Assembly: GCA_016212295.1 (NCBI GenBank)
Contig: JACRGO010000073.1
Span: 1 to 57,760 of the forward strand
Reading direction: 5' to 3'
Length of the DNA stretch: 57,760 bases
DNA from: Nitrospinota bacterium
GTDB lineage: Bacteria > Nitrospinota > Nitrospinia > JACRGO01
Part shown: positions 6,283-42,661 of the stretch, piece after piece
Numbering within the stretch: the first letter of the stretch is position 1
How the letters are laid out: every line of letters begins with the position of its first letter
The notes under the pieces: model-generated
Told to the model about the DNA's origin: nothing
Seen by the model: the letters and a program-made list of their open reading frames with translations, nothing else
Database searches by the model: none
Made by a program: the position numbers and the translations under genes

Positions 6283-6294
6283 AAGTTTATAAGG

Positions 6295-7663: not shown

Positions 7664-7695
7664 AAGATGCAAGGCAGCCTTGACGCGACTAAAAA

Positions 7696-20316: not shown

Positions 20317-20364
20317 GCGGCCACAACGGCCAATAGCCATTGGTCATTGACTGATAAAAAAACA

Positions 20365-20593
20365 GTAACAGCTCACGGGTGCCATGAAAAACCAGATAAA
20401 GCCTCATTAGCTATTTTTTTAAATCCCCCTTAATCCCCCTTGCAAGGGGGAATTAAAGCAGAGCCGATCTAGGGGAGTTATCCATTTTAGGGGCCTTTTC
20501 CGTATTCCCCCTTACCAAAGGGGGACCAGGGGGGATGCGGTTTCCCCTGCAATTGGGCGTGAAGCAGTTTTCCCTGACACCGTGAACTATTAC
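20365..20593. mobile_element. MITE family B, copy 2, carrying CCCCCT/AGGGGG palindromes
   Basis: TIRs GTAACAGCTCAC / GTGAACTATTAC; flanks A7CA and A8CA (TSD with homopolymer slip). Confidence 0.75.
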
Positions 20594-20667
20594 AAAAAAA
20601 ACATTAAAGAATTATATTCCAGCGGCCGATAATGAAAGCATCTTAAACCATTTTCAGGAGAAAAATA

Positions 20668-21435
20668 ATGAGGGGAATAATTTTAATTTTAGTTCTTGTT
20701 TTTTCCATGATGTCCCAAACCATACATGGGAAGGAATCGCAAGAGAACAGCCATTTTGATAAAAAAAATTCCTTTTCCGCGAAAGGGGGATACCATATTT
20801 TCATGGACAGCGGTTTCACGGACGCCTGGAACCCTTCCCGGCAAGCCATAAACGAATCGAATATCAATGACAGCGGCGACATGAACGGCGGCGTTGGGGA
20901 ATTGGCCTACGAAAGAATACTCTACGAAAATATCCTCGGTGCGGAGATTGCCATCGGATATTTCATCGCTGGCAAGAATTATAATTATTTGATTACAAGC
21001 GGGGGATCAACCACTACTTCCTCAACCGACATAAAAATAGAAAGCCTGTACATTTCCCCGTCTTTCAAACTCCATTTGCCGGTCCTGGATTCCTTTGCAT
21101 TCTACGCCGGAGGAGGCCCTGATTATTATAAAACCTGGATAAGGCATGGCATTCAGTCAGGAAGCGCTTCTGTTAACAGGGAGGGGACTTTCAATACCTT
21201 CGGATTTCACGGCCTGGGAGGAGTGGACTGGTTCGTCTTCAAGAAACCTTCGGAGGGTGAATACGACATACCCCTAAGCCTCTTCGCGGAATATAAATAT
21301 ACAAGGGTAAAAGTAAACGACGCCGATAAGGCAATCATTGATTACACCAACATGAGCACCGGAAGCGCTTATTCAAAAAATGATTTAGAGATTGGCGGCC
21401 ACTCATTGCTCTTCGGCGTGAGGTGGCATTTTTAA
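20668..21435 (+). CDS. Outer-membrane beta-barrel protein (OmpW/porin-like)
   Basis: Signal peptide; FYAGGG, FGFHGLGG, LFAEYKY; C-terminal GVRWHF. Confidence 0.8.
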   Translation: MRGIILILVLVFSMMSQTIHGKESQENSHFDKKNSFSAKGGYHIFMDSGFTDAWNPSRQAINESNINDSGDMNGGVGELAYERILYENILGAEIAIGYFIAGKNYNYLITSGGSTTTSSTDIKIESLYISPSFKLHLPVLDSFAFYAGGGPDYYKTWIRHGIQSGSASVNREGTFNTFGFHGLGGVDWFVFKKPSEGEYDIPLSLFAEYKYTRVKVNDADKAIIDYTNMSTGSAYSKNDLEIGGHSLLFGVRWHF

Positions 21436-21531
21436 AATCAGGGAACTGCACACATCGAACGTCGAAATGAGTCATGTGCCATGAGCCTATGACCCGCCAC
21501 GCATGACTCATGACGCGCTCCCTTCCTCGAT

Positions 21532-23451
21532 TCATCCCTGCGTGGAATCCCTTTCCAAAATCCTTGGGGTGATGAATATCAGCAATTCCTCCTCCCCCTC
21601 CACATCGTCCTTATTCTTGAACAGCCATCCCAGGGCAGGGACCCTTGACAGCCATGGCACTCCTTTATTGGTATTCGTCGCCGTTTTCTTGAAAAGCCCC
21701 CCCAGCACGATGGTATCGCCGTTTCTCACTATAATCTCGGTGGTCACGGTCCTGGTGGATATTGAAGGCACTCCGCTCGTCGATTTTATGGAAGAATCCG
21801 GCTCGTCCTTTGCCGCATTGATTACAAGAGAAACATAACCGTCGGGCGTGATATGCGGCGTGGTGGCAAGCTTGATGGTGGCGTTCTTCCATTCCGTCGC
21901 GGTGCCGTCCTGCGAAACAGTCTCATATGGTATGGAGTTCCCGCTTTCAATGGACGCCTGAACATTGTCCTTGGTGGTAATCCTAGGATTGGAGATGATT
22001 TTCCCTTTTCCCGCGCTCTCAAGGGCGCTCAATTGGATGTCCAGATAATTACCATCAACAACATGCCCCAGAACCACTCCTAAAGCCCCTCCAGCGCCGG
22101 CGCCGGCCGCTGCAGGGAGGTCCACCACGTAATTTCCCCCTGCACCGCCATTCAGCCCAATGTTATTAGGAAAGGTGCTATTGGTCAGCATGTCCGCGTT
22201 GCCGCCCCAACGGATTCCAAGTTGCTTGGAGTAATTCCTTTTGACCTCAACTATTCTGGCCTCTATGGAAACCTGTTTTGGAGGGGTGTCAAGGATATGT
22301 ATGAGGTCTTGCATTTTTTTCAGGCTTTCCTTGACGTCCACGAGGATCAGGGTAAAAGTCCTTTGGTCCACGGTTATCTTGCCCCTCTCGCTTTTCAGGC
22401 CGTCAAGATTCGCCGATAGTTTATCTATATCGGCGTAATTAATCTTCACTGTTTCCGTGATCAATGGCTCGGCCTGGATCTTGGCGGTTTTTTCCTCAAT
22501 GAGCTTCTTTCTCGATTCCAGCCTGGCCTGCTTCTCCTGGTCAACCTGCGCCTTGGTGGCCACGCGGATGATATTCCCCTCCCTTGTCATGCCAAGGTTA
22601 TTGTTTTTCAGGACGATATCCAATGCCTGGTCCCACGGAACGTTCATCAGCCGCATGGTCACGGTCCCCTGGACCTCCGGGGTGGTAATCACATTCAATC
22701 CGCTCACCTCGGCCAGAAGGCGCAGGATGTTTTTCACGTCAGCGTTTTGAAAATCCAGGGACACCCGCTGTCCTGTATAAGTCTTGGGACCGGTTTCACT
22801 GAAAATAAATTCCTCGTCCAGCGCCCCCTCTTCCTTGGCCGCGCCATTGGTTTTATTTGGAGATTCCTGGGCAAGGATGGCCTTTGGCGCGCTTTCCTGC
22901 TTGCCAGCCACAGGCTGATTCCCGGCCTTTTGCGCGGCCGTTTTTTCAACCGGAACCACCTCCGCGCCTCCAGCGGCTTTCTCGGTGGAAGGATTTTTAA
23001 TCTCAATGGCTATGCTGTTTTCATCCCTTTTGTCGATATTATATTCCGTGGGCTTATCAAGAGCCACTTCGACGCGGGTTGAATTGCTCTCGGGAAAATA
23101 CATAGGGGTGACCTTTCTTACGCCCCCCTGGTCCACGATCAAGGGGTTCTGAAAATTCCCAGGCTCCGTATTTTCCAATTCCACCATCAACCGTTCCGGA
23201 TCGGGCAGTTTATAGGCGCTATATTGAATCTTCTTGTCCGACCGCAACAGGATATTGACCTGTCCGGTTGAAATTTCCGATTCCAAGGAAACTATTTTCC
23301 CAGCCTCCTTCGGCGCCGCAACCGCGGACGGCTTGGCGCTCTCCTCTTGTTTTTCCGAGGGAGAGAATATTTTATCCTTTAGGACGCATCCGTTGAATAT
23401 CTGGAAGGTAAGGATAAAACAAAGGGCCAATGGTATTATCTTTGGAGTCAT
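21532..23451 (-). CDS. pilQ: Type IV pilus secretin with AMIN domain
   Basis: Lipobox-like FNGC, AMIN (PERLMVEL), YTGQRVSLDFQNADV, VPWDQALD, QVSIEARIVE, ELLIFITPRI. Confidence 0.95.
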   Translation of the reverse strand: MTPKIIPLALCFILTFQIFNGCVLKDKIFSPSEKQEESAKPSAVAAPKEAGKIVSLESEISTGQVNILLRSDKKIQYSAYKLPDPERLMVELENTEPGNFQNPLIVDQGGVRKVTPMYFPESNSTRVEVALDKPTEYNIDKRDENSIAIEIKNPSTEKAAGGAEVVPVEKTAAQKAGNQPVAGKQESAPKAILAQESPNKTNGAAKEEGALDEEFIFSETGPKTYTGQRVSLDFQNADVKNILRLLAEVSGLNVITTPEVQGTVTMRLMNVPWDQALDIVLKNNNLGMTREGNIIRVATKAQVDQEKQARLESRKKLIEEKTAKIQAEPLITETVKINYADIDKLSANLDGLKSERGKITVDQRTFTLILVDVKESLKKMQDLIHILDTPPKQVSIEARIVEVKRNYSKQLGIRWGGNADMLTNSTFPNNIGLNGGAGGNYVVDLPAAAGAGAGGALGVVLGHVVDGNYLDIQLSALESAGKGKIISNPRITTKDNVQASIESGNSIPYETVSQDGTATEWKNATIKLATTPHITPDGYVSLVINAAKDEPDSSIKSTSGVPSISTRTVTTEIIVRNGDTIVLGGLFKKTATNTNKGVPWLSRVPALGWLFKNKDDVEGEEELLIFITPRILERDSTQG

Positions 23452-23454
23452 GAT

Positions 23455-26127
23455 CTATTCCTCCTCTTTCTTTAGCTTGAATTTTTTTGTTTTAGTTGAT
23501 ATTTTGCCCACGTAATCCCTGATATTTTCCTCAACCATTACCTGGTCCTTGGTTATTGAGGCCACTTTCCCATAGTTAGTCCCTACTATGTCCCCGGCCT
23601 TGATGGTATATCCCTTCTGGTCCGAGCCCTGCACTAGGGCGAAATTCTGCTTCTCTCCAACCACAATGCCGACTATCGTCAAGGAATCAAGGTCTATGTT
23701 CAAGGGACTGATTACCTTGGCTTTATATTCGGAATTCAGCTTGGAGACCATCGCGGAATACTCAGCCAACCTTTGATTTACCTCCTCTTCCGGCCTTTTT
23801 TCCAGTTTTTTTGAGTCCTTGAAGTATTCCGTCAAATCCTCAATCTTGCCTGTAAGTTTAGGGTCTTCCTTTTGGGCGCGTGAATAAAGATACATGTTGA
23901 TCGGCTCAACCTTCGATAGTTCCTTCCAAAGGCTGGAGATGTCCACGGTCGGCGCCGACTGGATTATTTCCATGTCTATCAGAGAGGCAAAGGGATCGCG
24001 CAATTGTTGTCCCATGTAAGTCGCGCTATAAATAAATTCTTCTGGCTCCTCTTTTTTCTCCTGGGGCGTTTCCTGGGACCCTTCCTTGGCTTCCTTTTTC
24101 TCCTCCTTGGAGTCTGCTTTTATTTCCCCCCCTTTTTCAGGGGCCATGATGCCTTTTTCCCCGCCGGCGGCCTCCTGGACGGTTTTTCCTTCCTCCGCCG
24201 TGGGCGGCGGTTGTGGAAGGGAAGTTTCCTTCTTTGTTGGAGGAGGCTCTATTTTTTTCTCTTCCTGAGAGGCCGCTGTTTTCTCTTTTTCCTTTTCAGC
24301 CGGTGGAACAACCGCTGGTTTTTGCGGTTCCGACTCGGCAACCTTGGCCGTCGACGGCGGTCCAGGCTCGACAGCCTTCGCGCCCGCCGGTTGCTCCATC
24401 CTTGCCGTTGCCGCGGGTTTAGGGGCCGCGGCCCCCTTTTTCCTGACCGTGGGGAGATCCTTCAACCCGATAAAAGTTGTTTGTTTTATTTTTTCAGGAG
24501 TGAATACCGTTTCCATAGCCAGGGATTCCATCACGCCCGCAAGATAGAGGATTTCCCCTGGCTCGGGACTTGTCTTGGCGAAACCAGACAGCAACTCCCG
24601 GGGGATATTTTTCAGACCGGATTCAGCCAAGGCGATCAGCTTGGTTGTGTCAAAAAAAAACAGGAGATGATTATTTGGAGAAACCCCGGAAGAAGCATAC
24701 ACTTTATTTTTTTCCAGGGAGGGTTTTTCTTGCCGGATGGCGTCTATAATATTATCCGCCAAGTTTTCTCCAATGGCTAAAAACAAAAAATTTTCATGGA
24801 AAAAATAATCAAACGGCGGGGCAGGGTCGTTTTTTACCCGGTTTATTTCAAATTCCTTGTAACTCCTTTTTTCTATCGCGGAGTTGAGTGATTTTTCCAC
24901 TAGCTTGGCCGCTTGCTGGACATCTTTTACCTCCAATGCCGCCGCAATGCCTGGTAAAAATTTTTCCACATCTCCGCTTCCAACGACTGCCAGACACCAT
25001 TCCTGGCCCAGAAGCGGCAAAACCTCCTCTTCCCATAAAATAACATTCCCTTCCTTTCCAACGCCCCCGAATAAAGAAAAAGCTTGAAGCATCGGTCCGG
25101 CTTGCGCCATTTTTTCCTTGAAATACTGGACTATCTCTCCAGCGTTCATCCTCTGAACACCGAGGTACAGCATGGCTTCTGACGGCATTAAATGAAGGGT
25201 TTGTAAAACCTCGGGCACGGCGGAAACCCAATTCCCGCTGAAACCGGCTGTTTTTCCCGGGCCAGCGGAAAAATCCGTTTGAACCTTGATCCCCTTCTCC
25301 ATGGAGACCCTGGAAAAGAAGGCCTCAACAATGGTTTCCTTCTCCACGGCTTCTTGCGGCGGCCCTTCCGCCAAATGAAACAATTCTTCCAGTTTTGCGT
25401 TGTCAACATACATCCCATATCTGGTCGCGGCCATGGATTTTCCTACGTTTTTCACATATAGCGGAGAGTCAACAATCCTCTGGATGTCCCCCCCCTCCGC
25501 TATGCCAAGCGAAAGCTTGAGCGTGTCCAGGGAGTTGGACATGACCATCGCGCCGTTAACCAACGCGTAATGGATAGGAATCCCAAATAGACCTTCCGGG
25601 ACGCTCGTGACCGCGAAATTCCCGAACCGTTGCTTCACGAAATCCCCCTTCCCGGAGTAAGACATGTATTTTTGGCCGAGGAATTCCTCTATGTAAAAGA
25701 GAGGTCCGGTCTTGGTCGTGATGAGAAAGGAAATTTTTTCCTTTTTGGAGGGAAAAAACGCCAGGGCCACATCCTGCCCGAAAGCCCCAAGGAAGACCTC
25801 TTCCGACAATAACGATTGAAGCCTTTCCCTGGTTCCCAGGCTCTCCGGCGGCTGGACTATTGACGTAATGAGAGGAGACACCTGATATTCAGCCAGTTGA
25901 AGGAAAAATTTTGAACGGCTGAATCCTTCCCAGGTTTCCCCTAGGCCTTTAATGAAAAATACCAGCGCCGCTCCACCAGGGACGAGTTGTTCCACGTTTT
26001 TCTCGCCTTGAGAATAAGCGGGGGGATAGGAGCGAACGGCCTGTTTATTCCTCTGGTAAAGAAAAAACCCCGCGCCAGCGGACCCTATGATACCGGTAAT
26101 TATAAGAGCCGAAAGAAATTTTCTCAT
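23455..26127 (-). CDS. pilP: PilP-domain protein fused to a large membrane-anchored N-terminal (DUF3352-like) region
   Basis: C-terminal RDPF...LTIVGIV...ALVQ...GYTIKAGDIVGTNYGKVASIT..VMVEE; occupies the pilP position; N-terminal TM, ~550-aa domain, Pro/Ala/Glu/Lys linker. Confidence 0.8.
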   Translation of the reverse strand: MRKFLSALIITGIIGSAGAGFFLYQRNKQAVRSYPPAYSQGEKNVEQLVPGGAALVFFIKGLGETWEGFSRSKFFLQLAEYQVSPLITSIVQPPESLGTRERLQSLLSEEVFLGAFGQDVALAFFPSKKEKISFLITTKTGPLFYIEEFLGQKYMSYSGKGDFVKQRFGNFAVTSVPEGLFGIPIHYALVNGAMVMSNSLDTLKLSLGIAEGGDIQRIVDSPLYVKNVGKSMAATRYGMYVDNAKLEELFHLAEGPPQEAVEKETIVEAFFSRVSMEKGIKVQTDFSAGPGKTAGFSGNWVSAVPEVLQTLHLMPSEAMLYLGVQRMNAGEIVQYFKEKMAQAGPMLQAFSLFGGVGKEGNVILWEEEVLPLLGQEWCLAVVGSGDVEKFLPGIAAALEVKDVQQAAKLVEKSLNSAIEKRSYKEFEINRVKNDPAPPFDYFFHENFLFLAIGENLADNIIDAIRQEKPSLEKNKVYASSGVSPNNHLLFFFDTTKLIALAESGLKNIPRELLSGFAKTSPEPGEILYLAGVMESLAMETVFTPEKIKQTTFIGLKDLPTVRKKGAAAPKPAATARMEQPAGAKAVEPGPPSTAKVAESEPQKPAVVPPAEKEKEKTAASQEEKKIEPPPTKKETSLPQPPPTAEEGKTVQEAAGGEKGIMAPEKGGEIKADSKEEKKEAKEGSQETPQEKKEEPEEFIYSATYMGQQLRDPFASLIDMEIIQSAPTVDISSLWKELSKVEPINMYLYSRAQKEDPKLTGKIEDLTEYFKDSKKLEKRPEEEVNQRLAEYSAMVSKLNSEYKAKVISPLNIDLDSLTIVGIVVGEKQNFALVQGSDQKGYTIKAGDIVGTNYGKVASITKDQVMVEENIRDYVGKISTKTKKFKLKKEEE

Positions 26128-26173
26128 TTTTGCATGTCAAAATTTTTACGCTTTAATGCGTTGATTTATGAAA

Positions 26174-26189
26174 AGCAAAAACCGTACCC
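26174..26189 (-). promoter_or_regulatory. Putative sigma54 promoter upstream of pilP-pilQ
   Basis: Minus strand GGGTACGGTTTTTGCT fits GG-N10-GC (consensus TGGCACG-N4-TTGCW). Confidence 0.5.
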
Positions 26190-26267
26190 GAACCTTTTGT
26201 GTTAAAAAAATCCTATAATAATTAACAAGGAGCCTTTATCAAAAATAGCGCCTGAAGCGGGATTGTA

Positions 26268-26296
26268 TTGACTTGCGTGATGAACTAATTTATCAT
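26268..26296 (+). promoter_or_regulatory. Sigma70 promoter of the TA operon with overlapping imperfect palindrome
   Basis: TTGACT-N17-TATCAT; TGATGAA-N4-TTTATCA overlaps the -10; ATG only 10 nt further on. Confidence 0.65.
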
Positions 26297-26306
26297 TTTC
26301 CTGATC

Positions 26307-26582
26307 ATGGCCGTTTTCTATAAATCCGCATTCAGAAAATTCGTTAAAAAACAGACAAGGCCTTTTCAACTTGCCATTGAAGATGAAATTGATAGAATTA
26401 AAAATAATCCATCTGTTGGGGAAGATAAAAAGGGAGATTTAGCGGCATTCAAAGTCAGCAAGTTTAAATTCCACCATCAACAATATCTTATTGCATACGA
26501 AATAAATGGTAATGACATAACAATTTATATGATGGGGACTCATGAAAACTTTTATAGGGACCTTAAACGCTATACGGAGTAA
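26307..26582 (+). CDS. Type II toxin, RelE/ParE family
   Basis: FRKFVKKQ...NPSVGEDKKGDL...YLIAY...GTHENFYRDLKRY. Confidence 0.88.
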   Translation: MAVFYKSAFRKFVKKQTRPFQLAIEDEIDRIKNNPSVGEDKKGDLAAFKVSKFKFHHQQYLIAYEINGNDITIYMMGTHENFYRDLKRYTE

Positions 26583-26588
26583 ATAAAT

Positions 26589-26897
26589 ATGATAACAGCA
26601 ATAACAGCGGAAAAAGTTTATAGGGAAATCCTGGAAATGCCGGTAAAGGAAAGGGAGAAACTTTTTATAGTTATAGCAAGGCATGGCTTTGAAAAAGACG
26701 TATACACGCATGATGAGGTGTTTGACGATGTAAGGCGGTCGCCTTTTACAATAAAAGAGGCGGCGGAATATCTTGAGGTAGCGGAGATAACTGTCAGAAG
26801 GTGGACAACACAAGGAGTTTTAAAATCCAAAAGAATCGGCAAAAATATAGTATTTCACGCGGATGAACTTAAATCCTTCAAAAGCAGGAAAATATGA
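26589..26897 (+). CDS. Excisionase/MerR-like HTH protein, probable antitoxin
   Basis: FTIKEAAEYLEVAEITVRRWTTQGVLKSKRIG; 6 nt after the toxin; AT-rich like the toxin. Confidence 0.8.
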   Translation: MITAITAEKVYREILEMPVKEREKLFIVIARHGFEKDVYTHDEVFDDVRRSPFTIKEAAEYLEVAEITVRRWTTQGVLKSKRIGKNIVFHADELKSFKSRKI

Positions 26898-26981
26898 GCA
26901 ACACTGGCCGCTAGGTCATGGCGCGCCAGTTGCCGGGGAAGTTTGCCATTGGCTCCTCGTCACTGGCCACTGAATATATTG

Positions 26982-28378: not shown

Positions 28379-28389
28379 TGCTTGTCATT

Positions 28390-29469: not shown

Positions 29470-29487
29470 CGTCTTTTAAAAAAAATC

Positions 29488-29735
29488 GTAACTATTCAGC
29501 GAAATGTTATATAACCACGATAGTCGCCGTTAAATGCCTTTTTACATCCCCCTCAATCCCCCTTTGTTAAGGGGGAATGAATGGGTTGTGCCGTCCATCG
29601 TGGTATATTTCCCATACATCGCCTGATTCCCCCTTGTAAAAGGGGGCCAGGGGGATGTAAAAAGGCCGAAGGCTCATTTAACTATAAAAATTCAGTTTTA
29701 AGAAAGACAAAAATAAAAACACACTGAATAGTTAC
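29488..29735. mobile_element. MITE family B, copy 3, carrying CCCCCT/AGGGGG palindromes
   Basis: Perfect TIRs GTAACTATTCAG / CTGAATAGTTAC; 8-bp TSD AAAAAATC (29480-29487 and 29736-29743). Confidence 0.9.
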
Positions 29736-29869
29736 AAAAAATCAACTGTTAACGGTTATAAAAAATAATCCCTGTTGTTGATAAATTTCCCTAAGTATAC
29801 CGGAAAATTATACCAATTATATATAAAAAATCAATAATTTTTTAATAATTTTAATAAATAAGCTACTAA

Positions 29870-30724: not shown

Positions 30725-30781
30725 GGGGCAATCTTATCAAAATTCGGCCGGAGAGAAAAGGTTGTTGGGAAAGCAAACTGC

Positions 30782-31148
30782 AATTATAAATTACGAATTA
30801 CGAATTACGAATTGGCATATTGGTGTCCTTTTGTGGTTTTCTGAATAGATGCGATAATGCGACAGAGTTCTTCGGCATCGGCGTGGATGCTCTCGAATTC
30901 GGATTGAGTCAGGTAATTGGTATCCTTTAGGAGGCGGAGCCAGTAGGAAGTTTCACGGGCTTCTTTGTAGGCGATGGACATTTTTGAAACAAAGTCGGCG
31001 CGAGATTGTCCACCGATGGCCTCTTCAACGTTCGCACCGATGCTTGTTCCGCACCGCGAACGCATAGCTCTTGGCCTGAATAACATTATCAGCCTTCACC
31101 CCATTTCCTCCCAACTATTCGTAATTCGTAATTTTTAATTCCTAATTG
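30782..31148. repeat. Inverted tandem AATTACG/CGTAATT heptamer arrays bracketing the four-helix-bundle gene
   Basis: (aattacg)n at 30782-30813; (attcgta)n at 31117-31148. Confidence 0.85.
30805..31099 (-). pseudogene. Four-helix-bundle protein (IVS-protein/bAvd-like) with internal deletion and frameshift
   Basis: GTG 31099 gives MKADNVIQAKSYAFAVR; another frame gives CGTSIGANVEEAIGGQSRADF...KEARETSYWL; the usual ~20 residues between them are missing. Confidence 0.8.
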
Positions 31149-31275
31149 CTTCCAGCACTTCCGGCATTCTCATTCTTCTCCAGTTGGTCCTGGCTTGGTG
31201 TTTGGTTTGGTATTATAATATCACCAAACGTATTGATACACGGAAAATTTATTTTGGTCGCGGCCCTATCTCGCT

Positions 31276-32064: not shown

Positions 32065-32116
32065 CGATGGCGGCGCGGAGCGGCTTGGCCGAGGCCAATT
32101 TGTTTTATGAAACTCT

Positions 32117-32317
32117 AGCCAAAAATATTTGAAATTTTCAAAAAAGGCGCAATGTTTTTTCACGGTTGGAGATACTTGCTCGCCTATTCCGAAAATTTAT
32201 CTCTTTTTGCCATAAAACGTTTCACTTTTTGCCGCCTTTTTGAAATTTCAAATATTTTTGGCTCATTGCCGAAATGAAATGTGCGCGATAAATTCTCAGA
32301 ATAGGCGAGTAAGTATC
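32117..32317. repeat. Two interleaved inverted-repeat pairs (A-B-A'-B')
   Basis: A 32117-32149 / A' 32233-32263; B 32171-32201 / B' 32287-32317 (28/31 match). Confidence 0.85.
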
Positions 32318-32491
32318 CAAATCTCAATTGTCAAATAACAAATAAACCCCAATAACCAAAATTACAAATGACAAACAAGGGAATGGAATTGTTTTGGACA
32401 TTCGGTAATTGCAATTTGTAATTTATTTGTAATTTGCTATTTGTCATTTGGGATTTTTTTTCACTTTTGCTTGCGGCGAAGCCGCGCAATG
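32318..32491. repeat. Repeat family A, copy 5
   Basis: caaatctcaattgtcaaataacaaataaa...atttgtcatttgggatttt plus tail gcttgcggcgaagccgcgc. Confidence 0.85.
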
Positions 32492-32527
32492 TCATCCGTG
32501 TTCCACTAAAAATAGAATCCCAACGCC

Positions 32528-33475
32528 ATGAAACCAGAACTTGGCTTCATCTATTCCGAAAAATACCTCCTGCACGAAACCGGCAACCACCCCGAAAATA
32601 AAGGCCGCCTGACCGCCATACTGGAAGCGGTGGAAAAGAGCGGCCTGAGCCCAAGACTGCTCCGGATCGACCCGGTCCCCGCCACGGAGGAACAGATCGC
32701 CCTGATCCACGGCAAGGACTATATCCGTTCAGTCGAACGGGCGTGGGATGAAGGGCATAGGCGGCTCGACCCTGACACTGTCATCTGCCGGGAATCCTTT
32801 TCCGTTGCCCTTCTCGCGGCGGGCGCGGCTATTGGCGCGGTTGACATGGTCCTGAATGGCGATATTAAAAGGGCCTTCTGCGCGGTGCGGCCTCCAGGGC
32901 ATCACGCTGAACGTGGCCGCGCCATGGGGTTCTGTCTATTCAACAACGCGGCCATTGGCGCTGAATACGCACTCAGGTCGCGCGGACTCAAAAAAGTCTT
33001 CATCCTGGATTGGGACATCCACCACGGAAACGGGACCCAAAATTCCTTCTACCACAGAGGCGACGTCTATTACGCCAGCATCCACCAATGGCCGAATTAT
33101 CCAGGCACCGGCCTAGCGGAAGAGACCGGGGAAGGCGAGGGCCTTGGAGCGAACCGCAACCTTCCAGTAAACCCTTTCCAAGGCGATGACGCCTATCTGG
33201 ATATTTTCAGGGAATCAGTCATACCGGAAATCCTACGGTTTTCCCCGGAGTTGGTGGTGATTTCCGCGGGATTCGACGCGCATCAATCAGATTTCCTTGC
33301 CTCCATGAACGTTTCCACTGAGGGTTTTGGGAGGATGACGGAGATGGTGGCGGAGGCTGCTGACAAGGTGTGCGGCGGGCGTATAGTATCAGTGCTGGAA
33401 GGGGGATACCATTTGAAGGCGCTTGGGGACTCCGTGGCCGTTCATCTGGAAAAGATGATGGGTAAGGAAAGGTGA
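32528..33475 (+). CDS. Histone deacetylase family (Zn-dependent amidohydrolase)
   Basis: HPE, RPPGHHA, MGFC.FNN, DWDIHHGNGTQ, SAGFDAH, LEGGY. Confidence 0.95.
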   Translation: MKPELGFIYSEKYLLHETGNHPENKGRLTAILEAVEKSGLSPRLLRIDPVPATEEQIALIHGKDYIRSVERAWDEGHRRLDPDTVICRESFSVALLAAGAAIGAVDMVLNGDIKRAFCAVRPPGHHAERGRAMGFCLFNNAAIGAEYALRSRGLKKVFILDWDIHHGNGTQNSFYHRGDVYYASIHQWPNYPGTGLAEETGEGEGLGANRNLPVNPFQGDDAYLDIFRESVIPEILRFSPELVVISAGFDAHQSDFLASMNVSTEGFGRMTEMVAEAADKVCGGRIVSVLEGGYHLKALGDSVAVHLEKMMGKER

Positions 33476-33611
33476 AAGGAAGGCGAAGGGCGAAGAGGCG
33501 GAAGACTGAAGGCGGAGGCCAGAGGACGGAAGGCAATTGTCGATTGTCAATTGTAAATGGTCAACTACTAACCCCTAACCGCTATCCGCTAACCCCTAAT
33601 CGCTATCCGCT
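33473..33611. repeat. Stack of three different heptamer tandem arrays between convergent genes
   Basis: GAAGGC/AGAGGAC-type units; (CAATTGT)-type x4 at 33534-33564; (CTAACCC/CTATCCG) x6 at 33568-33611. Confidence 0.75.
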
Positions 33612-33615
33612 GCTA

Positions 33616-36204: not shown

Positions 36205-36230
36205 GGATGCCTGCGCCTTTTTAAAGAATT

Positions 36231-36394
36231 GAACTTAACGCCCTTCGGGCGGACTTTAAAGAATTGACATCCCCCTAGCCCCCTTTTTTAAGGGGGAATA
36301 TCTCAAAAATTCCCCCCTGGCAAGGGGGGATCAAGGGGGGTGTGCTTCATGTATCTATTTGATTTTAAAAGATTAAAAATGGAAATTCCTATAC
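36231..36394 (+). mobile_element. Family D element, copy 2, carrying CCCCCT/AGGGGG palindromes
   Basis: gaacttaaCGCCCttcGGGCGgactttaaagaattgacatc ... atttgattttaaaagattaaaaatggaaattcctatac. Confidence 0.75.
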
Positions 36395-36410
36395 GTTTTA
36401 AATATTTTTT

Positions 36411-36538
36411 TTACTGCTATTGGGAAAATAATCGCTGCTCAAAAAGTTGCGTGTTACGTGTTGCGGGGCGTCTTTTCAACCCGCGACTCGCAACCCGCAA
36501 CAAGTTGGTAATCAAAAATATTTTACGATAGCCGTTTA
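36411..36538. repeat. Inverted GTTGCG/CGCAAC heptamer palindrome inside an imperfect outer IR
   Basis: gttgcgtgttacgtgttgcgg...cccgcgactcgcaacccgcaac (36446-36501); outer actgctattgggaaaata / tattttacgatagccgt. Confidence 0.6.
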
Positions 36539-36540
36539 AT

Positions 36541-36580
36541 AAAAAAAAACCCCAGCGGTAAAATTCCATTCCGCCGGGGT
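36541..36580 (-). terminator. Intrinsic terminator after the M23 gene
   Basis: Minus strand ACCCCGGCGG-N12-CCGCTGGGGT followed by a T tract. Confidence 0.75.
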
Positions 36581-36644
36581 ATATACCCTTATATTTTATT
36601 ATAATGGAAAATTCTTTTAAAAAAAACCGGTTCCAATCCGGTCC

Positions 36645-37586
36645 TTATAACTCGCCGGTGCCCTCTTCGAAGATGTACCGCATAGGATTAACCGGGACCC
36701 CGTTCAACATGACTTCATAATGGCTGTGAGGTCCGGTGCTCCTTCCGGTGTTCCCGACCTCGGCTATGACCTGTCCCCTTTTCACCCTGTCGCCCACCTT
36801 CACGAAATGCTTGGAATTATGCCCGTACCTGGTCCTGACCCCATAGCCGTGGTCTATTTCCACCATCTTGCCGAAACTGCTGTCCCTGTCCGAGCTGACC
36901 ACGACTCCGTTGGCCGTTGCCACTACCGGCGAACCCACGCGGGTGGCGATATCGACCCCGGCATGGAGTTCCCTTAGCCCGGTAAAGGGGGAACTGCGAT
37001 ACCCGAAGGTGGAAGTTACCCATCCCCTTGCGGGCCAGATGGAAGGCGTTGAGGTAAGCAGTGAGGATTGGTTTTTAAAGAATTCGTCAAGTTCCAGGAA
37101 GCTCATTTCCTGCAGCTCGGAGCGGACCCGCAGATTTTTTAGGTCCTCATGTATACGCGAGCTGAGGGCGCTGTTGGGAGAATCCAGGGAGCCTTCCTCA
37201 TCAATGCGCTCCTCGGAACCACCGATGCCAAGCCCTCCCCCGCCTTGTTGGCCCTTGGGAAGGTCCAGGGCGGTGATGACCCGGAGTTTTCTGTCGAACT
37301 TTTCCAGGCGGACCATTTGGGACTCGAAGTCCTGTATTTTCCTGGAAAACTTATGGAGTTGGACTTGCTGGTCCTGGTTTTCCTTTCTTAGCGAGTCCAG
37401 TTCAACCACTTCCCGGCTGATTTCAAAATAGCGATTATAAAAATAGTATGACGCTACGAAAAAAATAACGGAAGAGACCAGGACAAAGGAAAGCAGGAAC
37501 TTAACAACTTTTTTGTGAAGTTGAAATCGCCGGGGATTAGCCGAGGTATTGGAAAAAATTAAAAGATTGTAGTAATTGTTCGCCAT
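36645..37586 (-). CDS. M23 family metallopeptidase (TM + coiled coil)
   Basis: TPSIWP, HAGVD, YGH, GNTGRSTGPHSHYEV. Confidence 0.93.
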   Translation of the reverse strand: MANNYYNLLIFSNTSANPRRFQLHKKVVKFLLSFVLVSSVIFFVASYYFYNRYFEISREVVELDSLRKENQDQQVQLHKFSRKIQDFESQMVRLEKFDRKLRVITALDLPKGQQGGGGLGIGGSEERIDEEGSLDSPNSALSSRIHEDLKNLRVRSELQEMSFLELDEFFKNQSSLLTSTPSIWPARGWVTSTFGYRSSPFTGLRELHAGVDIATRVGSPVVATANGVVVSSDRDSSFGKMVEIDHGYGVRTRYGHNSKHFVKVGDRVKRGQVIAEVGNTGRSTGPHSHYEVMLNGVPVNPMRYIFEEGTGEL

Positions 37587-37652
37587 TCGGAATTTGAACC
37601 TTAGGAAACATTACTCCAAAAAGAATGAAAAAGCCGTACATACTGGGGGTTT

Positions 37653-37681
37653 ACTTTATAGAATTTTGCCCTTTTTGTCAA
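37653..37681 (-). promoter_or_regulatory. Putative sigma70 promoter for the M23 gene
   Basis: Minus strand TTGACA-N17-TAAAGT. Confidence 0.5.
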
Positions 37682-37791
37682 GTAAATTTTAAAAATTAAA
37701 ATTACTTTTCCTTGGAAATCCGTGTCATCAGCGTTATCCTCTGCCGGTTGCATAGCCCAGACGGGACTATGGAGCCGGCAAGGATTTTTTT

Positions 37792-40700
37792 TCATATTCT
37801 GACTTCTGGCTTCTGGCCTTCGATACCCGGCGCCTGCCCCCTGTCTTCATTTATACCCCGCGCGCGCCAGATATAAAAAATGGCTGGATACACAGCGAGT
37901 TCCATTATAGTGGAAGTGACGACGCCGCCGACCATCGGCGTTGCGATGCGCTTCATCACGTCAGCCCCGGCCCCGCTGCTCCATAGAATGGGAAGCAGGC
38001 CCGCGATGATCACCGCCGCGGTCATGGCCTTTGGACGCACCCTCTTCACCGCGCCGTGGTAAATGGCGTCACGCAGGTCCGCCGGACCCCGCATCTTGCC
38101 CTTGCTGCTCCATTCCCCGTAAGCCAGGTCCAGATAGAGGAGCATCACCACGCCCGTTTCCGCGTCCAGGCCGGCCAGGGCTATCAGCCCCACCCAAACC
38201 GCCACGCTAAGGTTGTAGCCTGACAGGTACAGCATCCAGAAGGCGCCGACGAGCGAAAACGGCACAGCCAGGAGCACTATGGCGGTCTTCACCATTGACC
38301 GGGTGTTTAGATAGATGATCAGCACGATGATCATAAGCGTGAGCGGGACCACGATCAGGAGCCTCTGCTTGGCCCGGACCATGTACTCGTACTGCCCGGA
38401 CCAGAAGATGTTGTATCCAGCGGGCATGCGGATGGTCCCCTTGTCCAGGGCCTCCTTCACAACGGCCTGGGCCGACTCCACATACCGCCCGACGTCGATG
38501 TCCTTCACGTCCACGTAAATCCAGGCGTTGGGAACAGCGTCCTCGCTCTTTATTCCCATCGGGGCGCGGACCACTTCCACGCTCGCCAGTTGTCCAAGCG
38601 GAATGTGCGCCCCCACGGGAGTGGGAACGATGATTTCCCTCAACGACTCCAGGTCCTTGCGGAAATCGCGGTCATAGCGAAGGTTCACGGTGTAACGCTG
38701 AAGCCCCTCCACCGTGGTGGTGAGGGGCATGCCGCCAAGGGCCACTTCCAGCACCTCCTGGACCTCTCCAACGGTGAGGCCGTACCGCGCGATCTCGTCG
38801 CGGTTGATTGTGAACTCAACGTAATTTCCCCCCATCACGCGCTCCGCGAAGACGCTTGCCGTGCCCTGGACTTTTCGCATCACAGGCTCAATCTCGGAGG
38901 CGATCCGCTCAAGCTCCGCCAAGTCCGGCCCGGCCACCTTGATCCCGACCGGGGTTTTGATACCGGTCGCCAGCATGTCGATGCGCGTCTTGATGGGCAT
39001 GGTCCAGGCGTTGTTCAGTCCGGGGATTTGAACAGCGGCGTTCATGGCCTCCACCAGCTCGTCCGGGGTCCGGCGGCGGTGGGCCTTCACCTTTCCGCGT
39101 TCGTCCAAAATGTCCGCCTCCGGCCATTCGCTTTCGTCCTTTAGCATGATGGTGGTTTCGACCATGTCAAAGGGGGCCGGGTCGGTTGCGGTTTCAGCGC
39201 GGCCTATCTTGCCGAACACGTGGTGGACCTCCGGGAAGGTTTTTATTATCTTGTCAGTCTGCTGAAGGACCTCCCGCGCCTTTGTAGGGGAGATGCCTGG
39301 AAAGGTAGTCGGCATGTACAGGAGGTCTCCTTCATAAAGCGGCGGCATGAATTCGGAGCCGAGGTTTTGGAAGGGGAAGGTTTTCCCCGCGCCAAGGGAG
39401 ATTGTCTTCAACCATCCTTCCGGGAGCCGGTTGGCAATCAGCCGATTCCAGGGGAAGAAGACCCACGCCACCAGGATGGCGGCTCCAAAAATCACCGCGA
39501 CGCGGCGGCGTATGGCCCAGTCGATCACCGGATGATAGGCCCATATCAGGAACCGGTTTACCGGGCTCTTCTCCTCCGGGACCATCTTTCCCCTGATAAA
39601 ATATCCCATGAGGATAGGGGCCAGGGTCACGGAGAGTAGGGCCGCCGCGCCCATTGAGTAAGTCTTGGTAAAGGCAAGGGGCTTGAAGAGGCGTCCCTCC
39701 TGGGCCTGAAGGGTAAAGACTGGAATAAATGAAACGGTTATGACAAGCAGCGAATAAAAAAGGGTCGGCCCCACCTCGATGGAGGCGTCCCTGATGATCT
39801 CCCAATGCGGCTTCCTGCCGCCGTCGCGCTCAATGTGCTTGTGGGCGTTCTCTATCATGATGATGACGGCGTCCACCATTGCCCCTATGGCTATGGCTAT
39901 GCCGCCCAGGGACATGATGTTGGAGCTAAGCCCCTGGCCGTACATGATGAGAAAGGAGATGAGGACCGCTATGGGGAGGATGAGAATGGCCACGAGCGCG
40001 CTCCTGAAATGAAGCAGGAAGAGGAGGCAGACCAGCGCCACCACAAGGCTTTCCTCAATCAGCTTTTCCTCAAGGGTCTTCACGGCGCGATTGATGAGCG
40101 CGCTACGGTCATAGGCGATCTGGTAATGAACGTCGGGCGGGAGCGACTTCATGGCCTGGTCCAGACGTTTTTTAACGTCCTGGATCACCTGGCGGGCGTT
40201 TGCCCCGTACCGCACAACCACTATCCCTCCAACGGTCTCCCCTTCCCCGTTCCATTCAGCTATGCCCCGGCGCATGTCGGGTCCAAGCTGCACGGTCGCA
40301 GCCTGGTCCAGGAGGACCGGGACGCCGTTTGCGCCCACGGCCACCGCGATTTTTTTCAGGTCGCCCAGTCCCTTGATATAACCCCGCACACGCAGCACGA
40401 ACTCCTTTTCCGCCATTTCCATGGCGCGGCCCCCGACCTCTCCATTGCTCCTCTTGATCGCCATGGCGATCTCGGAGATGGAAAGACCGTATGCGCGGAG
40501 CTTGGTGGGGTCCACCGTGATCTGGTACTGCTTCACGAATCCGCCGATGGAGGCCACCTCCGACACGCCTTCAACCGAGGTGATCTGATATTTGAGATAC
40601 CAGTCCTGCATGGAGCGCAGCTCGGCCAGGTCGCGTTCCTTGGATTGAATGGAGTACATGAAGGCCCAGCCAACGCCCGTTGCGTCAGGACCTAGTGAGG

Positions 40701-41079
40701 GCGTGACGTTCTTGGGCAGGCTTGCGGCCAGTCCGCTTAGGTATTCGAGGACCCGGCTCCTGGCCCAATAGGGATCGGTCCCGTCCTCGAAGATCACGTA
40801 CACAAAGGAAAAACCGTAGAAGGAATAGCCGCGCACCACCTTGGCATAGGGGACGGATAGCATCTTGGTTGTGATGGGATAGGTTACCTGGTCCTGGACG
40901 ATTTGCGGGGCCTGGCCCGGCCATTCGGTGTAGACGATCACCTGGGTGTCGGAGAGGTCAGGTATGGCGTCAAGGGGGATGTTTTTGAGGGCGTATAAGC
41001 CGCCGAGCACGAGGACCGCCGTGGCCGTGAGCACGATGAATTTATTTTTCAGGGAAAAATCGATTATGGATTGGAGCAT
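37792..41079 (-). CDS. cusA: CusA/SilA heavy-metal efflux RND permease
   Basis: DAIPDLSDTQVI, YWARSRVLEYL, GSEFMPPL.EGDLLYMP, RIDMLATGIKTPVG, RVRPKAMT. Confidence 0.96.
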   Translation of the reverse strand: MLQSIIDFSLKNKFIVLTATAVLVLGGLYALKNIPLDAIPDLSDTQVIVYTEWPGQAPQIVQDQVTYPITTKMLSVPYAKVVRGYSFYGFSFVYVIFEDGTDPYWARSRVLEYLSGLAASLPKNVTPSLGPDATGVGWAFMYSIQSKERDLAELRSMQDWYLKYQITSVEGVSEVASIGGFVKQYQITVDPTKLRAYGLSISEIAMAIKRSNGEVGGRAMEMAEKEFVLRVRGYIKGLGDLKKIAVAVGANGVPVLLDQAATVQLGPDMRRGIAEWNGEGETVGGIVVVRYGANARQVIQDVKKRLDQAMKSLPPDVHYQIAYDRSALINRAVKTLEEKLIEESLVVALVCLLFLLHFRSALVAILILPIAVLISFLIMYGQGLSSNIMSLGGIAIAIGAMVDAVIIMIENAHKHIERDGGRKPHWEIIRDASIEVGPTLFYSLLVITVSFIPVFTLQAQEGRLFKPLAFTKTYSMGAAALLSVTLAPILMGYFIRGKMVPEEKSPVNRFLIWAYHPVIDWAIRRRVAVIFGAAILVAWVFFPWNRLIANRLPEGWLKTISLGAGKTFPFQNLGSEFMPPLYEGDLLYMPTTFPGISPTKAREVLQQTDKIIKTFPEVHHVFGKIGRAETATDPAPFDMVETTIMLKDESEWPEADILDERGKVKAHRRRTPDELVEAMNAAVQIPGLNNAWTMPIKTRIDMLATGIKTPVGIKVAGPDLAELERIASEIEPVMRKVQGTASVFAERVMGGNYVEFTINRDEIARYGLTVGEVQEVLEVALGGMPLTTTVEGLQRYTVNLRYDRDFRKDLESLREIIVPTPVGAHIPLGQLASVEVVRAPMGIKSEDAVPNAWIYVDVKDIDVGRYVESAQAVVKEALDKGTIRMPAGYNIFWSGQYEYMVRAKQRLLIVVPLTLMIIVLIIYLNTRSMVKTAIVLLAVPFSLVGAFWMLYLSGYNLSVAVWVGLIALAGLDAETGVVMLLYLDLAYGEWSSKGKMRGPADLRDAIYHGAVKRVRPKAMTAAVIIAGLLPILWSSGAGADVMKRIATPMVGGVVTSTIMELAVYPAIFYIWRARGINEDRGQAPGIEGQKPEVRI

Positions 41080-41107
41080 GTTTTTTCTCCATGAGACGGG
41101 TATTTAA

Positions 41108-41206
41108 AAATAGAACGCGGATAACGCTGATGGCACGGATTATCGCGGATAAAGTTTCTTTTAATCCGTGAAAATCAGAACAATCCGTGTCATCCGTGTT
41201 CTATTT
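41108..41206. repeat. Repeat family E, full palindrome upstream of cusA
   Basis: aaatagaacgcggataacgctgatggcacggatt ... aatccgtgtcatccgtgttctattt. Confidence 0.85.
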
Positions 41207-41220
41207 AAAAAAACTAATTT

Positions 41221-41258
41221 ATTTGATTGTTAAAGGTAAAAAATGTAAATTCCTATGC
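41221..41258 (+). mobile_element. Family D, isolated oriIS-like end
   Basis: atttgattgttaaaggtaaaaaatgtaaattcctatgc matches 36357-36394. Confidence 0.6.
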
Positions 41259-41632
41259 TATTGAATTTTTTTTGCAATCTGAAACACTGAAATCGTATTG
41301 ACGAATAGAAACAGCCCGTCGAATATTAAATTTTCCGCGCCCTTTAAGCCTGACAAGGCGAGTAAATATATCATTACATAAATAACAGCGCCACCCGCGA
41401 TAAGGCCGAATATGTATCCAAGATAATGTCCACGAAACAAAAGAACGGACGCGGCAAAATATACCGGTATGAAAAAGAGATCAGGGTATATGAGGGAATT
41501 GTACGCCTCCTGGGGAAAGGCTTCCGGTCTCTTCCAGCTTCCCGCGATAACTGAAAACACCGCGTAAGCCTGAAAAGCCCCCCAGGCAAAAAACCAAATT
41601 ATCGCTGTCCACGGTTTTTTCATTTTCATCAA
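41258..41632 (-). CDS. Four-TM hypothetical membrane protein
   Basis: 124-aa ORF with four hydrophobic segments; its 3' part is duplicated at 42328-42661. Confidence 0.7.
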   Translation of the reverse strand: MMKMKKPWTAIIWFFAWGAFQAYAVFSVIAGSWKRPEAFPQEAYNSLIYPDLFFIPVYFAASVLLFRGHYLGYIFGLIAGGAVIYVMIYLLALSGLKGAENLIFDGLFLFVNTISVFQIAKKIQ

Positions 41633-41714
41633 TGCCTACTATGAGGCTCGATCTTTACCCACTCCTCCGGGTGGCGTTATCGTCCAGCCATTCGGAATGT
41701 TTGCGTTGCCATGG

Positions 41715-42239
41715 TCATTTTTCTTCCTTGCAACCTTTAAACCCTATTTTGGGGCGAAGGGGTGCGGATGGGGTCATCAATTGCCTTATTGCGTCGAACA
41801 CAACCTTGAATTGGGCGTCGTATTTCTTCTCCATGACTTCCAACTTTTTTGCCAAGTCTTTGTGGGCCGCAAGCATTTGCCGCAACCGCACGAAGGTCCG
41901 CATGATCTCTATATTCACCTTGACGGCCCTTTCACTATTGAGCACAGTGGAGAGCATGGCCACGCCCTGCTCGGTGAAAACATACGGGAGATAGCGGCGC
42001 CCTCCACGGCCTCCTTTTTTTGACATTCCAATTTGGAATCTCAAAGAATCAGTTTCCTCTTTGGTGAGCTGAAACATGAAGTCTTGAGGGAAGCGTCCAA
42101 CATTTCTTTTCACCGCCTTATTGAGATTGAAAGTCTCTACTTCATAAAGTTCCGCTAAATCACTGTCCAGCATGACTTTCTCACCACGGATCAGAAAGAT
42201 TTTCTTTTCGATGATTTCAACCGGTATCAAAGCTTCCAT
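41715..42239 (-). CDS. ORF6N domain DNA-binding protein
   Basis: [50 protein letters not shown]. Confidence 0.93.
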
Positions 42240-42298
42240 TTACCCTCCAAATCAAAGCCAATATTGGAAAGCTGTTTTTCAATCTCCTCGTTCAATCG
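42227..42298 (-). pseudogene. Fragment resembling the C-terminus of a Type I R-M HsdM
   Basis: Hand translation [23 protein letters not shown], overlapping the ORF6N start. Confidence 0.5.
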
Positions 42299-42327
42299 AA
42301 TTTACAGCAGCATGGATGCGGGATTAA

Positions 42328-42661
42328 TGAATTCTTTTGACAATCTGAAGCACTGAAATCGTGTTGACGATTAGAAAAAGCCCGTCGAATATTAAATTTG
42401 TAGTATAGGAATTTCCATTTTTTTAGCTTATGAATCAACGAGATGCTAAATGCATAAGAGGAAAAAACTGAACATCCAACATCGAACGTCCAACATCGAA
42501 GTAAGAAAAATTCGTTTTACGTTTTAAATCCTTTCTTCCTTTTTCGACGTTCGACGTTCAATGTTGGATGTTCGATGTTCAATTCTTTAAAGCCCGCCCG
42601 AATGGCGTTAATTTATCCGCGCCCTTTAAGCCTGACAGGGCGAGTAAATATATCATTACAT
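42328..42661 (-). pseudogene. Diverged duplicate of the 3' ~115 bp of the 41258-41632 gene, split by a family D insertion
   Basis: 42328-42399 joined to 42616-42661 aligns with 41262-41379. Confidence 0.85.
42400..42615 (-). mobile_element. Family D element, copy 3, with AACATCG/CGATGTT heptamer palindrome cargo
   Basis: Minus strand taaattaaCGCCAttcGGGCGggctttaaagaattgaacatc ... ggaaattcctatactac; sits between AAATTT and TCCGCG of the duplicated fragment. Confidence 0.85.

Follow-up and report, generated by a model that had tools for sequence, protein, structure and literature searches.

Why should the length of a repeat unit stay the same when its sequence changes from one place to the next? 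The question is raised by a contig of a Nitrospinota bacterium (JACRGO010000073.1 of assembly GCA_016212295.1), all 57,760 nucleotides of which are referred to here as the window, and in particular by positions 20,317 to 42,661, where several tandem arrays of 7-nucleotide words occur that have the period but not the sequence in common. An earlier note on this DNA proposed that a spreading system recognises periodic hairpin structure, perhaps at the RNA level, rather than sequence, and pointed to a mirrored pair of arrays that encloses an open reading frame (ORF) for a four-helix-bundle protein. The reading that is favoured here, with a probability of roughly 0.55, is that the arrays represent fold-back cassettes of the type known from ribosomal intervening sequences (IVS), together with arms that carry no gene, and that both turn over between strains.

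Period 7 in the genome

In the assembly, which has 237 contigs with a total of 3.74 Mb and is 90.5% complete, the window makes up contig C15. The intergenic DNA of this genome is strewn with 7-nucleotide units of unrelated sequence which are usually mirrored. Perfect arrays of at least three copies number 96 at period 7 and six or fewer at every other period from 1 to 24, and among arrays of at least four copies with at least 85% match there are 260 of period 7 compared with at most 21 for each other period between 4 and 15; a simulated second-order Markov genome of the same size contains a single such period-7 array. The preference for period 7 that had been suspected from the window thus holds for the genome as a whole. 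The words themselves are diverse, with 104 canonical words among the 565 period-7 clusters that reach a score of at least 36 in Tandem Repeats Finder (TRF), and the midpoints of 494 out of 654 strong arrays lie outside ORFs, in a greedy ORF set that takes up 85% of the genome. Where two arrays of the same word lie no more than 120 nucleotides apart they are inverted in 111 cases and direct in six. Eight of 118 hairpin loops hold an array of another word according to TRF, which is probably an undercount; AACATCG hairpins with CATGAGT-type arrays in their loops, which therefore appear to be nested, are found for instance at C156:33902-34041 and C214:36109-36256, on two other contigs of the assembly.

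A cassette with a four-helix-bundle gene

The gene-bearing cassette of the window consists of three parts:

30771..30813, left arm of AATTACG words (3.6 perfect copies and further degenerate ones; TRF and inverted-repeat scan)
30805..31086, minus strand, four-helix-bundle gene of PF05635/TIGR02436, 93 amino acids (profile matches)
31117..31151, right arm of ATTCGTA words, reverse-complementary to the left arm (TRF and inverted-repeat scan)

The arms are 33-35 nucleotides long and 86-88% complementary, with 30771-30805 separated from 31117-31151 by 311 nucleotides. The ORF at 30805-31086 on the minus strand matches PF05635 with an E-value of 2.2e-20 and TIGR02436 ("four helix bundle protein") with an E-value of 1.6e-23. 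The PF05635 match spans only profile positions 37-105 of 106, in an open frame of 96 amino acids, which means that the first helix is missing, and judging from its sequence the gene is probably decaying. A full-length paralogue in the same genome has PDB 2gsc, a structure with five chains, as its closest solved structure (E 7.8e-24). When the minus strand of 30765-31160 is folded as RNA, the gene is predicted to be closed off by a terminal stem of about 40 base pairs (z -2.0), which is kept in both the minimum free energy (MFE) and the centroid structure.

In contigs from the source metagenome the two AATTACG arms are separated not by the gene but by 28 or 10 other nucleotides (joints at 30807/31117 and 30813/31122). 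These contigs have the appearance of hairpins of this word family without a gene, either from other loci or from other organisms. A hairpin of AATTACG words is also present at C216:35196-35277, where the flanks read like coding DNA; a gene for a four-helix-bundle protein that has a suffix domain (TIGR04258) lies about 600 nucleotides away.

PF05635 genes are bracketed by word arrays in this and other genomes

The genome contains 18 matches to PF05635, of which 17 pass the family cut-off, and these share only 15-42% pairwise identity. The flanks of each gene were scored by aligning the left flank to the reverse complement of the right flank, which was feasible for 16 of the 18 loci, the remaining two being too close to contig ends. 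A flank score of at least 26 is reached by 15 of the 16 loci compared with 41 of 1288 control ORFs of 70-200 amino acids, and a score of at least 30 by 13 of the 16 compared with 20 of the 1288 (Fisher p about 1e-20). The words in the arms vary by locus and include TTAGCGA, GTTCACG, CAGGGGG, GGTCATT, AATTACG, CAAATTA and AACATCG, among others. When the search is turned around and starts from inverted pairs of the same word with a gap of 300-460 nucleotides, seven of 11 pairs (six distinct loci) enclose a PF05635 match. In a genome of the same genus, 11 of 15 PF05635 loci have a flank score of at least 30.

The association is found well beyond the genus. One genome per species was scanned with an alignment of four sequences, which returned 80 loci, 73 of them testable; as the sample was drawn by the alignment of one subfamily it is biased towards that subfamily. 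The hosts include Omnitrophota, Bacteroidota, several groups of the candidate phyla radiation (CPR), Clostridia, Planctomycetota, Acidobacteria, Gemmatimonadetes, Nitrospirae, Gammaproteobacteria and Methanophagales archaea, among others; Bacteroides thetaiotaomicron is likewise a carrier of the family. Flank scores of at least 30 occur at 45 of the 73 loci and at none of 144 displaced controls, the highest of which scores 26. The link between period-7 arrays and the four-helix-bundle family, which had been drawn from a single gene in the window, is therefore upheld both in this genome (15/16 vs 41/1288) and elsewhere (45/73 vs 0/144). The best repeat lag in the arms of the external loci is 7 in 34 loci, 8 in nine and 9 in two, so that the proposed combination of a conserved period with a free sequence applies to this genome, where 7 dominates, but has to be relaxed for PF05635 loci in other genomes.

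Several of the abundant gene-less word families have a gene-bearing counterpart. A copy with a gene exists in the genome for AAATTAC, AACATCG, AATGACC/T and ACGAGTG as well as for AGGGGGC, AACCGTG, AAGTGAC and AATTACG; the gene-less families AAATCTG, AAATCTC, AAAATCT and AATTGAC are without one, and a PF05635 copy that is cut by a contig end has words of the AAATCTG/AAATCTC type on its sole visible side. High flank scores are also seen for other ORFs, among them EutN, HIRAN and unknowns. EutN and HIRAN were rejected as cassette cargo as each has a complete hairpin on either side and none that encloses the gene.

A second cargo with longer words

A second protein family surfaced among the small ORFs with strong flank repeats, namely the PDDEXK_3 nucleases (PF13366, "GxxExxY"). 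The window contains one such cassette in addition to a gene-less hairpin built from similar words:

55403..55849, minus strand, PDDEXK_3 cassette with the gene at 55466-55804 and arms at 55403-55435 and 55817-55849 (E 4.4e-41)
41100..41214, gene-less hairpin with 54-nucleotide arms of 9-10-nucleotide words of the CGCGGATAA/CACGGATTA type (fold z -5.8)

The cassette has a flank score of 36 with a best lag of 10, and TRF calls period 10 at 55816-55846. All four PDDEXK_3 genes of the genome lie between inverted arms of 9-10-nucleotide words such as CACGGATAA, and the words of the hairpin at 41100-41214 are of the type that flanks these genes. Across 120 genomes of the phylum, arms are present at 22 of 28 testable PDDEXK_3 loci and at two of 54 controls, with word periods of 9 (nine loci), 10 (eight), 8 (four) and 12 (one) and never of 7. 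In the genomes sampled the word period thus differs between the two cargo families, and a slippage preference of a single polymerase cannot explain both. DUF559 was considered as a further cargo and dismissed, as its sole good match is flanked by an inverted repeat of the G5/C5 type and not by word arrays.

Arrays and other features of the window

Of the 65 rows that TRF returned for the whole window, 21 are at period 7; fold z-scores were obtained from single-strand DNA folds compared with 200 shuffles. The period-7 arrays and related structures of the window are as follows:

30789-30813, AATTACG array, 3.6 perfect copies (TRF)
31117-31147, complement of the AATTACG array (TRF)
33481-33505, 33534-33564 and 33568-33611, arrays of three different words (TRF)
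36477-36501, array (TRF)
42471-42497 with 42543-42580, arrays (TRF)
21451..21520, weak hairpin of a degenerate AACATCG fragment and subsequent CATGAGT/CATGACG words (fold z -1.8)
32317..32457, AT-rich fold-back of CAAATTA words, family A (TRF and inverted-repeat scan; fold z -1.3)
33473..33611, stacked orphan arrays of GGCGAAG, CAATTGT and CTAACCG, no hairpin (fold z -0.2)
36446..36501, small hairpin with GTTGCGx words in arm 1 and CAACCCG in arm 2 (z -3.0, 1 of 200 shuffles)
37797..37817, three copies of TTCTGGC within the last codons of the AcrB-family ORF 37792-41079 on the minus strand (TRF)
3274, 4304, 6302 and 7717 (range 3274..7756), period-7 arrays of CAAATTA words beyond 20317-42661 (TRF)
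6372-6403 and 6525-6549, mirrored pair GGTTCAA / AACCCTG
51386..51605, mirrored pair with GTTCACG/GTTCCAG words at 51386-51416 and AACCCTG at 51588-51605 (TRF)

Most of the differing period-7 arrays that the earlier note had listed are recovered by TRF, and the architecture is mirrored at several of them: 42465-42585 (fold z -5.1, with none of 200 shuffles as good) and 36440-36505 fold clearly, and 30771-30813 pairs with 31117-31151. The array that had been described at 26900-26972 is not confirmed, with no TRF row and a fold z-score of -0.8. Two further sites hold up in part. At 21451-21520 words of the CATGAGT type are indeed present, but they are degenerate, are not called by TRF and fold weakly; the same CATGAGT/CATGACG words recur in the loops of AACATCG hairpins elsewhere in the genome. 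At 33473-33611 three word types are stacked as had been claimed, but they form orphan arms instead of a hairpin, and the third array matches the words which flank a PF05635 gene on contig C48.

The gene-bearing cassette is located between a gene for a glycosyltransferase of family 2 (GT2, 29870-30724) and an ORF of unassigned function (31249-32163). A repeat of about 205 nucleotides with internal inverted repeats is found at 32115-32322 and has at least eight copies on other contigs with 91-98% identity. The organism possesses a PilM-N-O-P-Q operon, and a pair of a ParE-like toxin gene and a helix-turn-helix (HTH) gene on the opposite strand (26307-26897) sits within this pilM-N-O-P-Q cluster, between an ORF with a PilP domain and pilO. 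The PilP domain is confined to the last 80 or so residues of an 890-amino-acid ORF (23455-26127), the remainder of which has no Pfam match.

Composite elements and transposase genes

The AACATCG hairpin at the end of the segment is part of a larger structure:

42410..42615, composite element consisting of an AACATCG hairpin (arms 42470-42510 and 42533-42573, 83%) between conserved non-periodic flanks

One of the two flanks is a stem-loop 'tail' of the GCCCGAAGGGC type. Alignment of 17 full copies of the AACATCG hairpin reveals about 60 conserved nucleotides that end in GAAAAAACT on one side and the GCCCGAAGGGC tail on the opposite side. The tail motif has 116 matches in the genome. AACATCG-type words come after it in about 34 cases and AATGACC-type words, which form 35 arrays in the genome, in about 24; in some cases other arrays or a G5/C5 hairpin follow, and in 38 of the 116 nothing periodic does. 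An example of a GCCCGAAGGGC tail with a G5/C5 hairpin instead of heptamers is seen at 36227-36411, with a copy on contig C201 that is 96% identical. Hairpins of the two largest word families, AACATCG and AATGACC, are accordingly embedded for the most part in a larger composite element, with which they may spread.

The only match to Y2_Tnp in the genome is a fragment of 60 residues about 650 nucleotides from the nearest tail, with another ORF in between. A Y1_Tnp ORF of the IS200/RAYT-like type (C211:14526-15068; RAYT, REP-associated tyrosine transposase; REP, repetitive extragenic palindromic sequence) is flanked by palindromes of the GATTTGCAATC type and not by word arrays, and the region C211:14280-15330, with short-palindrome arrays on both sides of the gene, represents a separate and classical REP-like system.

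Inheritance, turnover and handedness of the arms

Among 57 cassettes, the arms have 6-mers in common only where the proteins are at least 75% identical, and the Mantel correlation between proteins and arms (r 0.089) is reached by none of 500 permutations. Where the proteins are about 50% identical the words are unrelated while the left and right arms are still complementary to each other. A hidden consensus was not detected in 32 rotationally aligned words (3.34 bits compared with 3.13 +/- 0.19 after shuffling). Words are nevertheless stable within the lineage: a double word of AACATCG is matched 190 times in this genome and 215 times in the one from the same genus, 1-10 times in the four genomes of one sister family and at most once in the other 25, and the reversed double word that served as a control has no match in either of the two same-genus genomes. 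The same-genus genome is the nearest that was compared; its secA is 73% identical at the DNA level and synteny around the window cassette is broken. One of its PF05635 loci (L160) encodes a protein with 71% identity to the AACATCG-flanked protein of the present genome and likewise has AACATCG arms. The proposal that structure is recognised and not sequence is hence supported by the freedom of the words (32 words, no consensus) and qualified by their conservation within the genus.

Turnover can be followed over a shorter distance by comparing positions 23000-42900 with contigs from four groundwater DNA runs. In a strain that is about 91% identical, 16 nucleotides bridge 32107-32528 compared with 420 in the window, the absent stretch being the one that holds the 205-nucleotide repeat and the CAAATTA-word fold-back, and 67 nucleotides bridge 33462-33614 compared with 151, which in the window hold the stacked arrays. 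Presence in one strain and absence in the other imply that the repeats come and go between strains.

The arms also have a handedness. The first arm has more G than C in 46 of 58 cassettes and less in seven, with five ties, and the word families of 111 gene-less hairpins are G-first in 27 cases and C-first in seven. Since an inverted repeat reads alike from either strand, this handedness belongs to the repeat itself and does not depend on how the gene is oriented.

Interpretation and alternatives

It is proposed that the arrays belong, as arms, to a single population of fold-back elements spread over the genome, which would occur paired as hairpins, stacked or orphaned, and that the gene-less arrays would be a form of the cassette whose mirrored word arrays enclose a PF05635/TIGR02436 gene. 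Cassettes and hairpins alike would be selfish DNA that is capable of insertion, and their turnover would take place at the DNA level. Left and right arms would be renewed or homogenised together, and the length of the arrays altered by slippage. Each cargo family goes with its own word period, and similar proteins retain similar words; for this reason the protein of a cassette is most likely to bind the periodic arms of that cassette, and recognition would then be periodic and cognate and not purely structural. The gene-less hairpins may be derivatives or passengers, with the two largest families riding in the larger composite element. A more daring version, which we regard as doubtful, is that PF05635 and GxxExxY proteins grip their own arms word by word, in steps of 7 and 9-10 nucleotides respectively, and promote the copying or insertion of the fold-back into the tips of other stem-loops; rRNA IVSs, the heptanucleotide repeats of cyanobacteria and the excess of heptamers in prokaryotes would then be footprints of one ancient class of protein-guided hairpins. 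The solved relative of PF05635 is a pentameric ring.

Several observations weigh against this interpretation. Clear arms are missing at 28 of the 73 external loci and, depending on the cut-off, at one to three of the 16 loci here; about six of the 18 PF05635 copies look degraded through truncation or an in-frame stop, and the copy in the window is itself truncated. A same-word inverted partner within 500 nucleotides is found for only 179 of the 654 strong arrays. The co-inheritance of proteins and words at short range would also be expected from the vertical descent of whole cassettes, and the high copy number of AACATCG and AATGACC in this genome may owe nothing to the four-helix-bundle protein. 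To our knowledge PF05635 has no catalytic activity. The possibility of recognition at the RNA level that had been raised finds no support in the mismatches within the arms of 58 cassettes, which on the sense strand of the gene are of the G:U type in 63 cases and of the A:C type in 68 (18 vs 25 when counted by cassette); G:U does not exceed A:C, and nothing therefore points to an RNA stem that is kept by selection.

Three other explanations have to be considered. The simplest is plain replication slippage, in which heptamers suit the replicative polymerase and arise without the help of any element or protein, the link to a gene family being incidental. That 7 nucleotides suit the polymerase is Mrazek's proposal, as given in the introduction of PMC4679880, and the same source names heptamers as the most frequent of the long simple-sequence repeats of many prokaryotes; moreover the copy number of the arrays differs between copies and strains, and a mirrored partner goes undetected for 475 of the 654 strong arrays. 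Slippage, however, cannot make inverted copies, yet these outnumber direct ones by 111 to six within 120 nucleotides, nor does it produce families with conserved ends and dozens of dispersed copies or the bracketing of 15 of 16 PF05635 genes compared with 41 of 1288 control ORFs, and one polymerase preference cannot set both the heptamers and the 8-10-nucleotide words around PDDEXK_3 genes in the same genomes. We regard slippage as very improbable. A role as host-useful RNA is somewhat easier to accept but still improbable. The hairpins would act as terminators, stabilisers of mRNA or RNase III sites that are kept like some REPs, with the four-helix-bundle genes as insulated units, and this would suit their intergenic position and stable stems, the predicted RNA fold that encloses the window gene in a long stem, and the cleavage of the stem of S23p-bearing 23S IVSs by RNase III that is described in PMC4990558. 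It fits poorly with a sense strand that has no G:U excess, with repeats that are present or absent between strains of about 91% identity, with hairpins nested in the loops of others (8 of 118) and with the AATTACG hairpin on C216 in flanks that read like coding DNA. Rfam searches at gathering thresholds also returned no match in the window.

A further alternative, unlikely as well though it deserves more credit than either slippage or host-useful RNA, is that the hairpins are miniature elements mobilised in trans by a rolling-circle enzyme of the IS91 type or a Y1 enzyme of the RAYT/IS200 type, and that PF05635 genes are cargo or loop insertions. The AACATCG and AATGACC hairpins adjoin the conserved tail with its 116 matches and share a second conserved flank, one and the same tail can precede hairpins of different families, a sign of probable modular assembly, and both a Y2_Tnp fragment and a Y1_Tnp gene with palindrome flanks are present in the genome. 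These flanks, however, are ordinary palindromes without word arrays, the sole Y2_Tnp match is the 60-residue fragment some 650 nucleotides from a tail, and 38 of the 116 tails stand without an adjoining heptamer array. Word arms moreover occur at 45 loci of unrelated phyla (the tail was not searched for there), and trans-mobilisation leaves unexplained why the word period tracks the cargo family.

The evidence ties together heptanucleotide repeats, the family of the 23S "intervening-sequence protein" and the origin of rRNA IVSs, which have so far been unexplained and unconnected, and turns the binding of the arms, the movement of the cassettes and their cutting into directly testable questions. 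It also has practical consequences since some genomes contain hundreds of gene-less arms, and such repeats break metagenome assemblies and go unannotated.

Comparison with known systems

The closest known counterparts of the cassettes are the ORF-bearing IVSs of 23S rRNA, in which the PF05635/TIGR02436 family first came to light; one from Leptospira was reportedly described by Ralph and McClelland in 1993. In the IVS of PMC4990558 the ORF for S23p lies in a loop closed by a 28-base-pair terminal stem, tandem GACAGAT heptamers occur in two to three copies, the number of which varies with the strain, and RNase III cuts the S23p-bearing IVS at the first heptamer repeat; the paper also records the older idea that the ORF of the IVS serves mobility. 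The cassettes described here resemble such elements in having a PF05635-family ORF in the loop of a long stem of terminal inverted repeats, in the tandem heptamers at the stem and the decay of some copies of the ORF (PMC4990558). The window cassette thus combines terminal inverted repeats with a PF05635/TIGR02436 ORF but, unlike IVSs in helix 25 or 45 of a 23S rRNA gene, is not inserted in rRNA, as it lies between the GT2 gene and the ORF at 31249-32163. A second difference is that there are 18 copies per genome with differing words, plus hundreds of gene-less arms. No 23S rRNA gene was found in the 90.5%-complete assembly, so that no rRNA IVS is visible in it.

Heptanucleotide repeats of filamentous cyanobacteria, known as short tandemly repeated repetitive (STRR) sequences, were reportedly described by Mazel in 1990, and the word AATGACC is one that we take to be STRR2. 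We know of no protein partner that has been proposed for STRR or simple-sequence heptamers. The arrays of the present genome are like these in being 7-nucleotide tandems of many words that are intergenic, dispersed and enriched over other periods. They are unlike them, the latter being described as direct arrays, in that they go with a gene family and are for the most part mirrored. An excess of heptamers among the long simple-sequence repeats of prokaryotes is already known from Mrazek (2007), as summarised in PMC4679880. TAACTGA repeats in marine Beggiatoaceae, cyanobacteria and Bacteroidetes comprise 169 direct sets and one indirect set and are proposed to be the site of a translational regulator (MacGregor 2015, PMC4679880). 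Like the arrays found here they are intergenic heptamers, often just upstream of starts, with a patchy distribution across phyla, but they consist of one word, with no cassette or mirrored architecture described in the sections of PMC4679880 consulted, compared with the many mirrored words of the present genome.

REP/REPIN-RAYT systems, which offer the nearest working analogy, also have dispersed families of intergenic hairpins, a gene flanked by repeats and a lineage-specific pairing of the two (Bertels and Rainey 2011, PMC3116915). They differ in the flanked gene, which in the cassettes codes for a four-helix-bundle or PD-(D/E)XK protein instead of a Y1 transposase, and in the arms, which are arrays of periodic words instead of a fixed palindrome. 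The word arrays of this genome flank PF05635 and PF13366 genes and not Y1_Tnp.

Avd is the nucleic-acid-binding accessory protein of diversity-generating retroelements (DGRs), and the ORF in the window has a homologous four-helix-bundle fold. It was rejected as a DGR Avd, as it scores 20.2 with bAvd (cut-off 40) and 32.6 with NF033474 (cut-off 80), and a scan of 20 ORFs at 17.6-45.4 kb revealed no reverse transcriptase.

A general link of PF05635 or PF13366 to mirrored word arrays was not found in the literature searched, which did not extend to Elhai (2008) on small repeats in Nostoc or to supplements. Taken together, the findings point to a widespread and barely described selfish cassette that is related to the intervening sequences of rRNA, and its main value lies in a testable link between IVS elements and heptamer repeats, each of which is already known in its own right.

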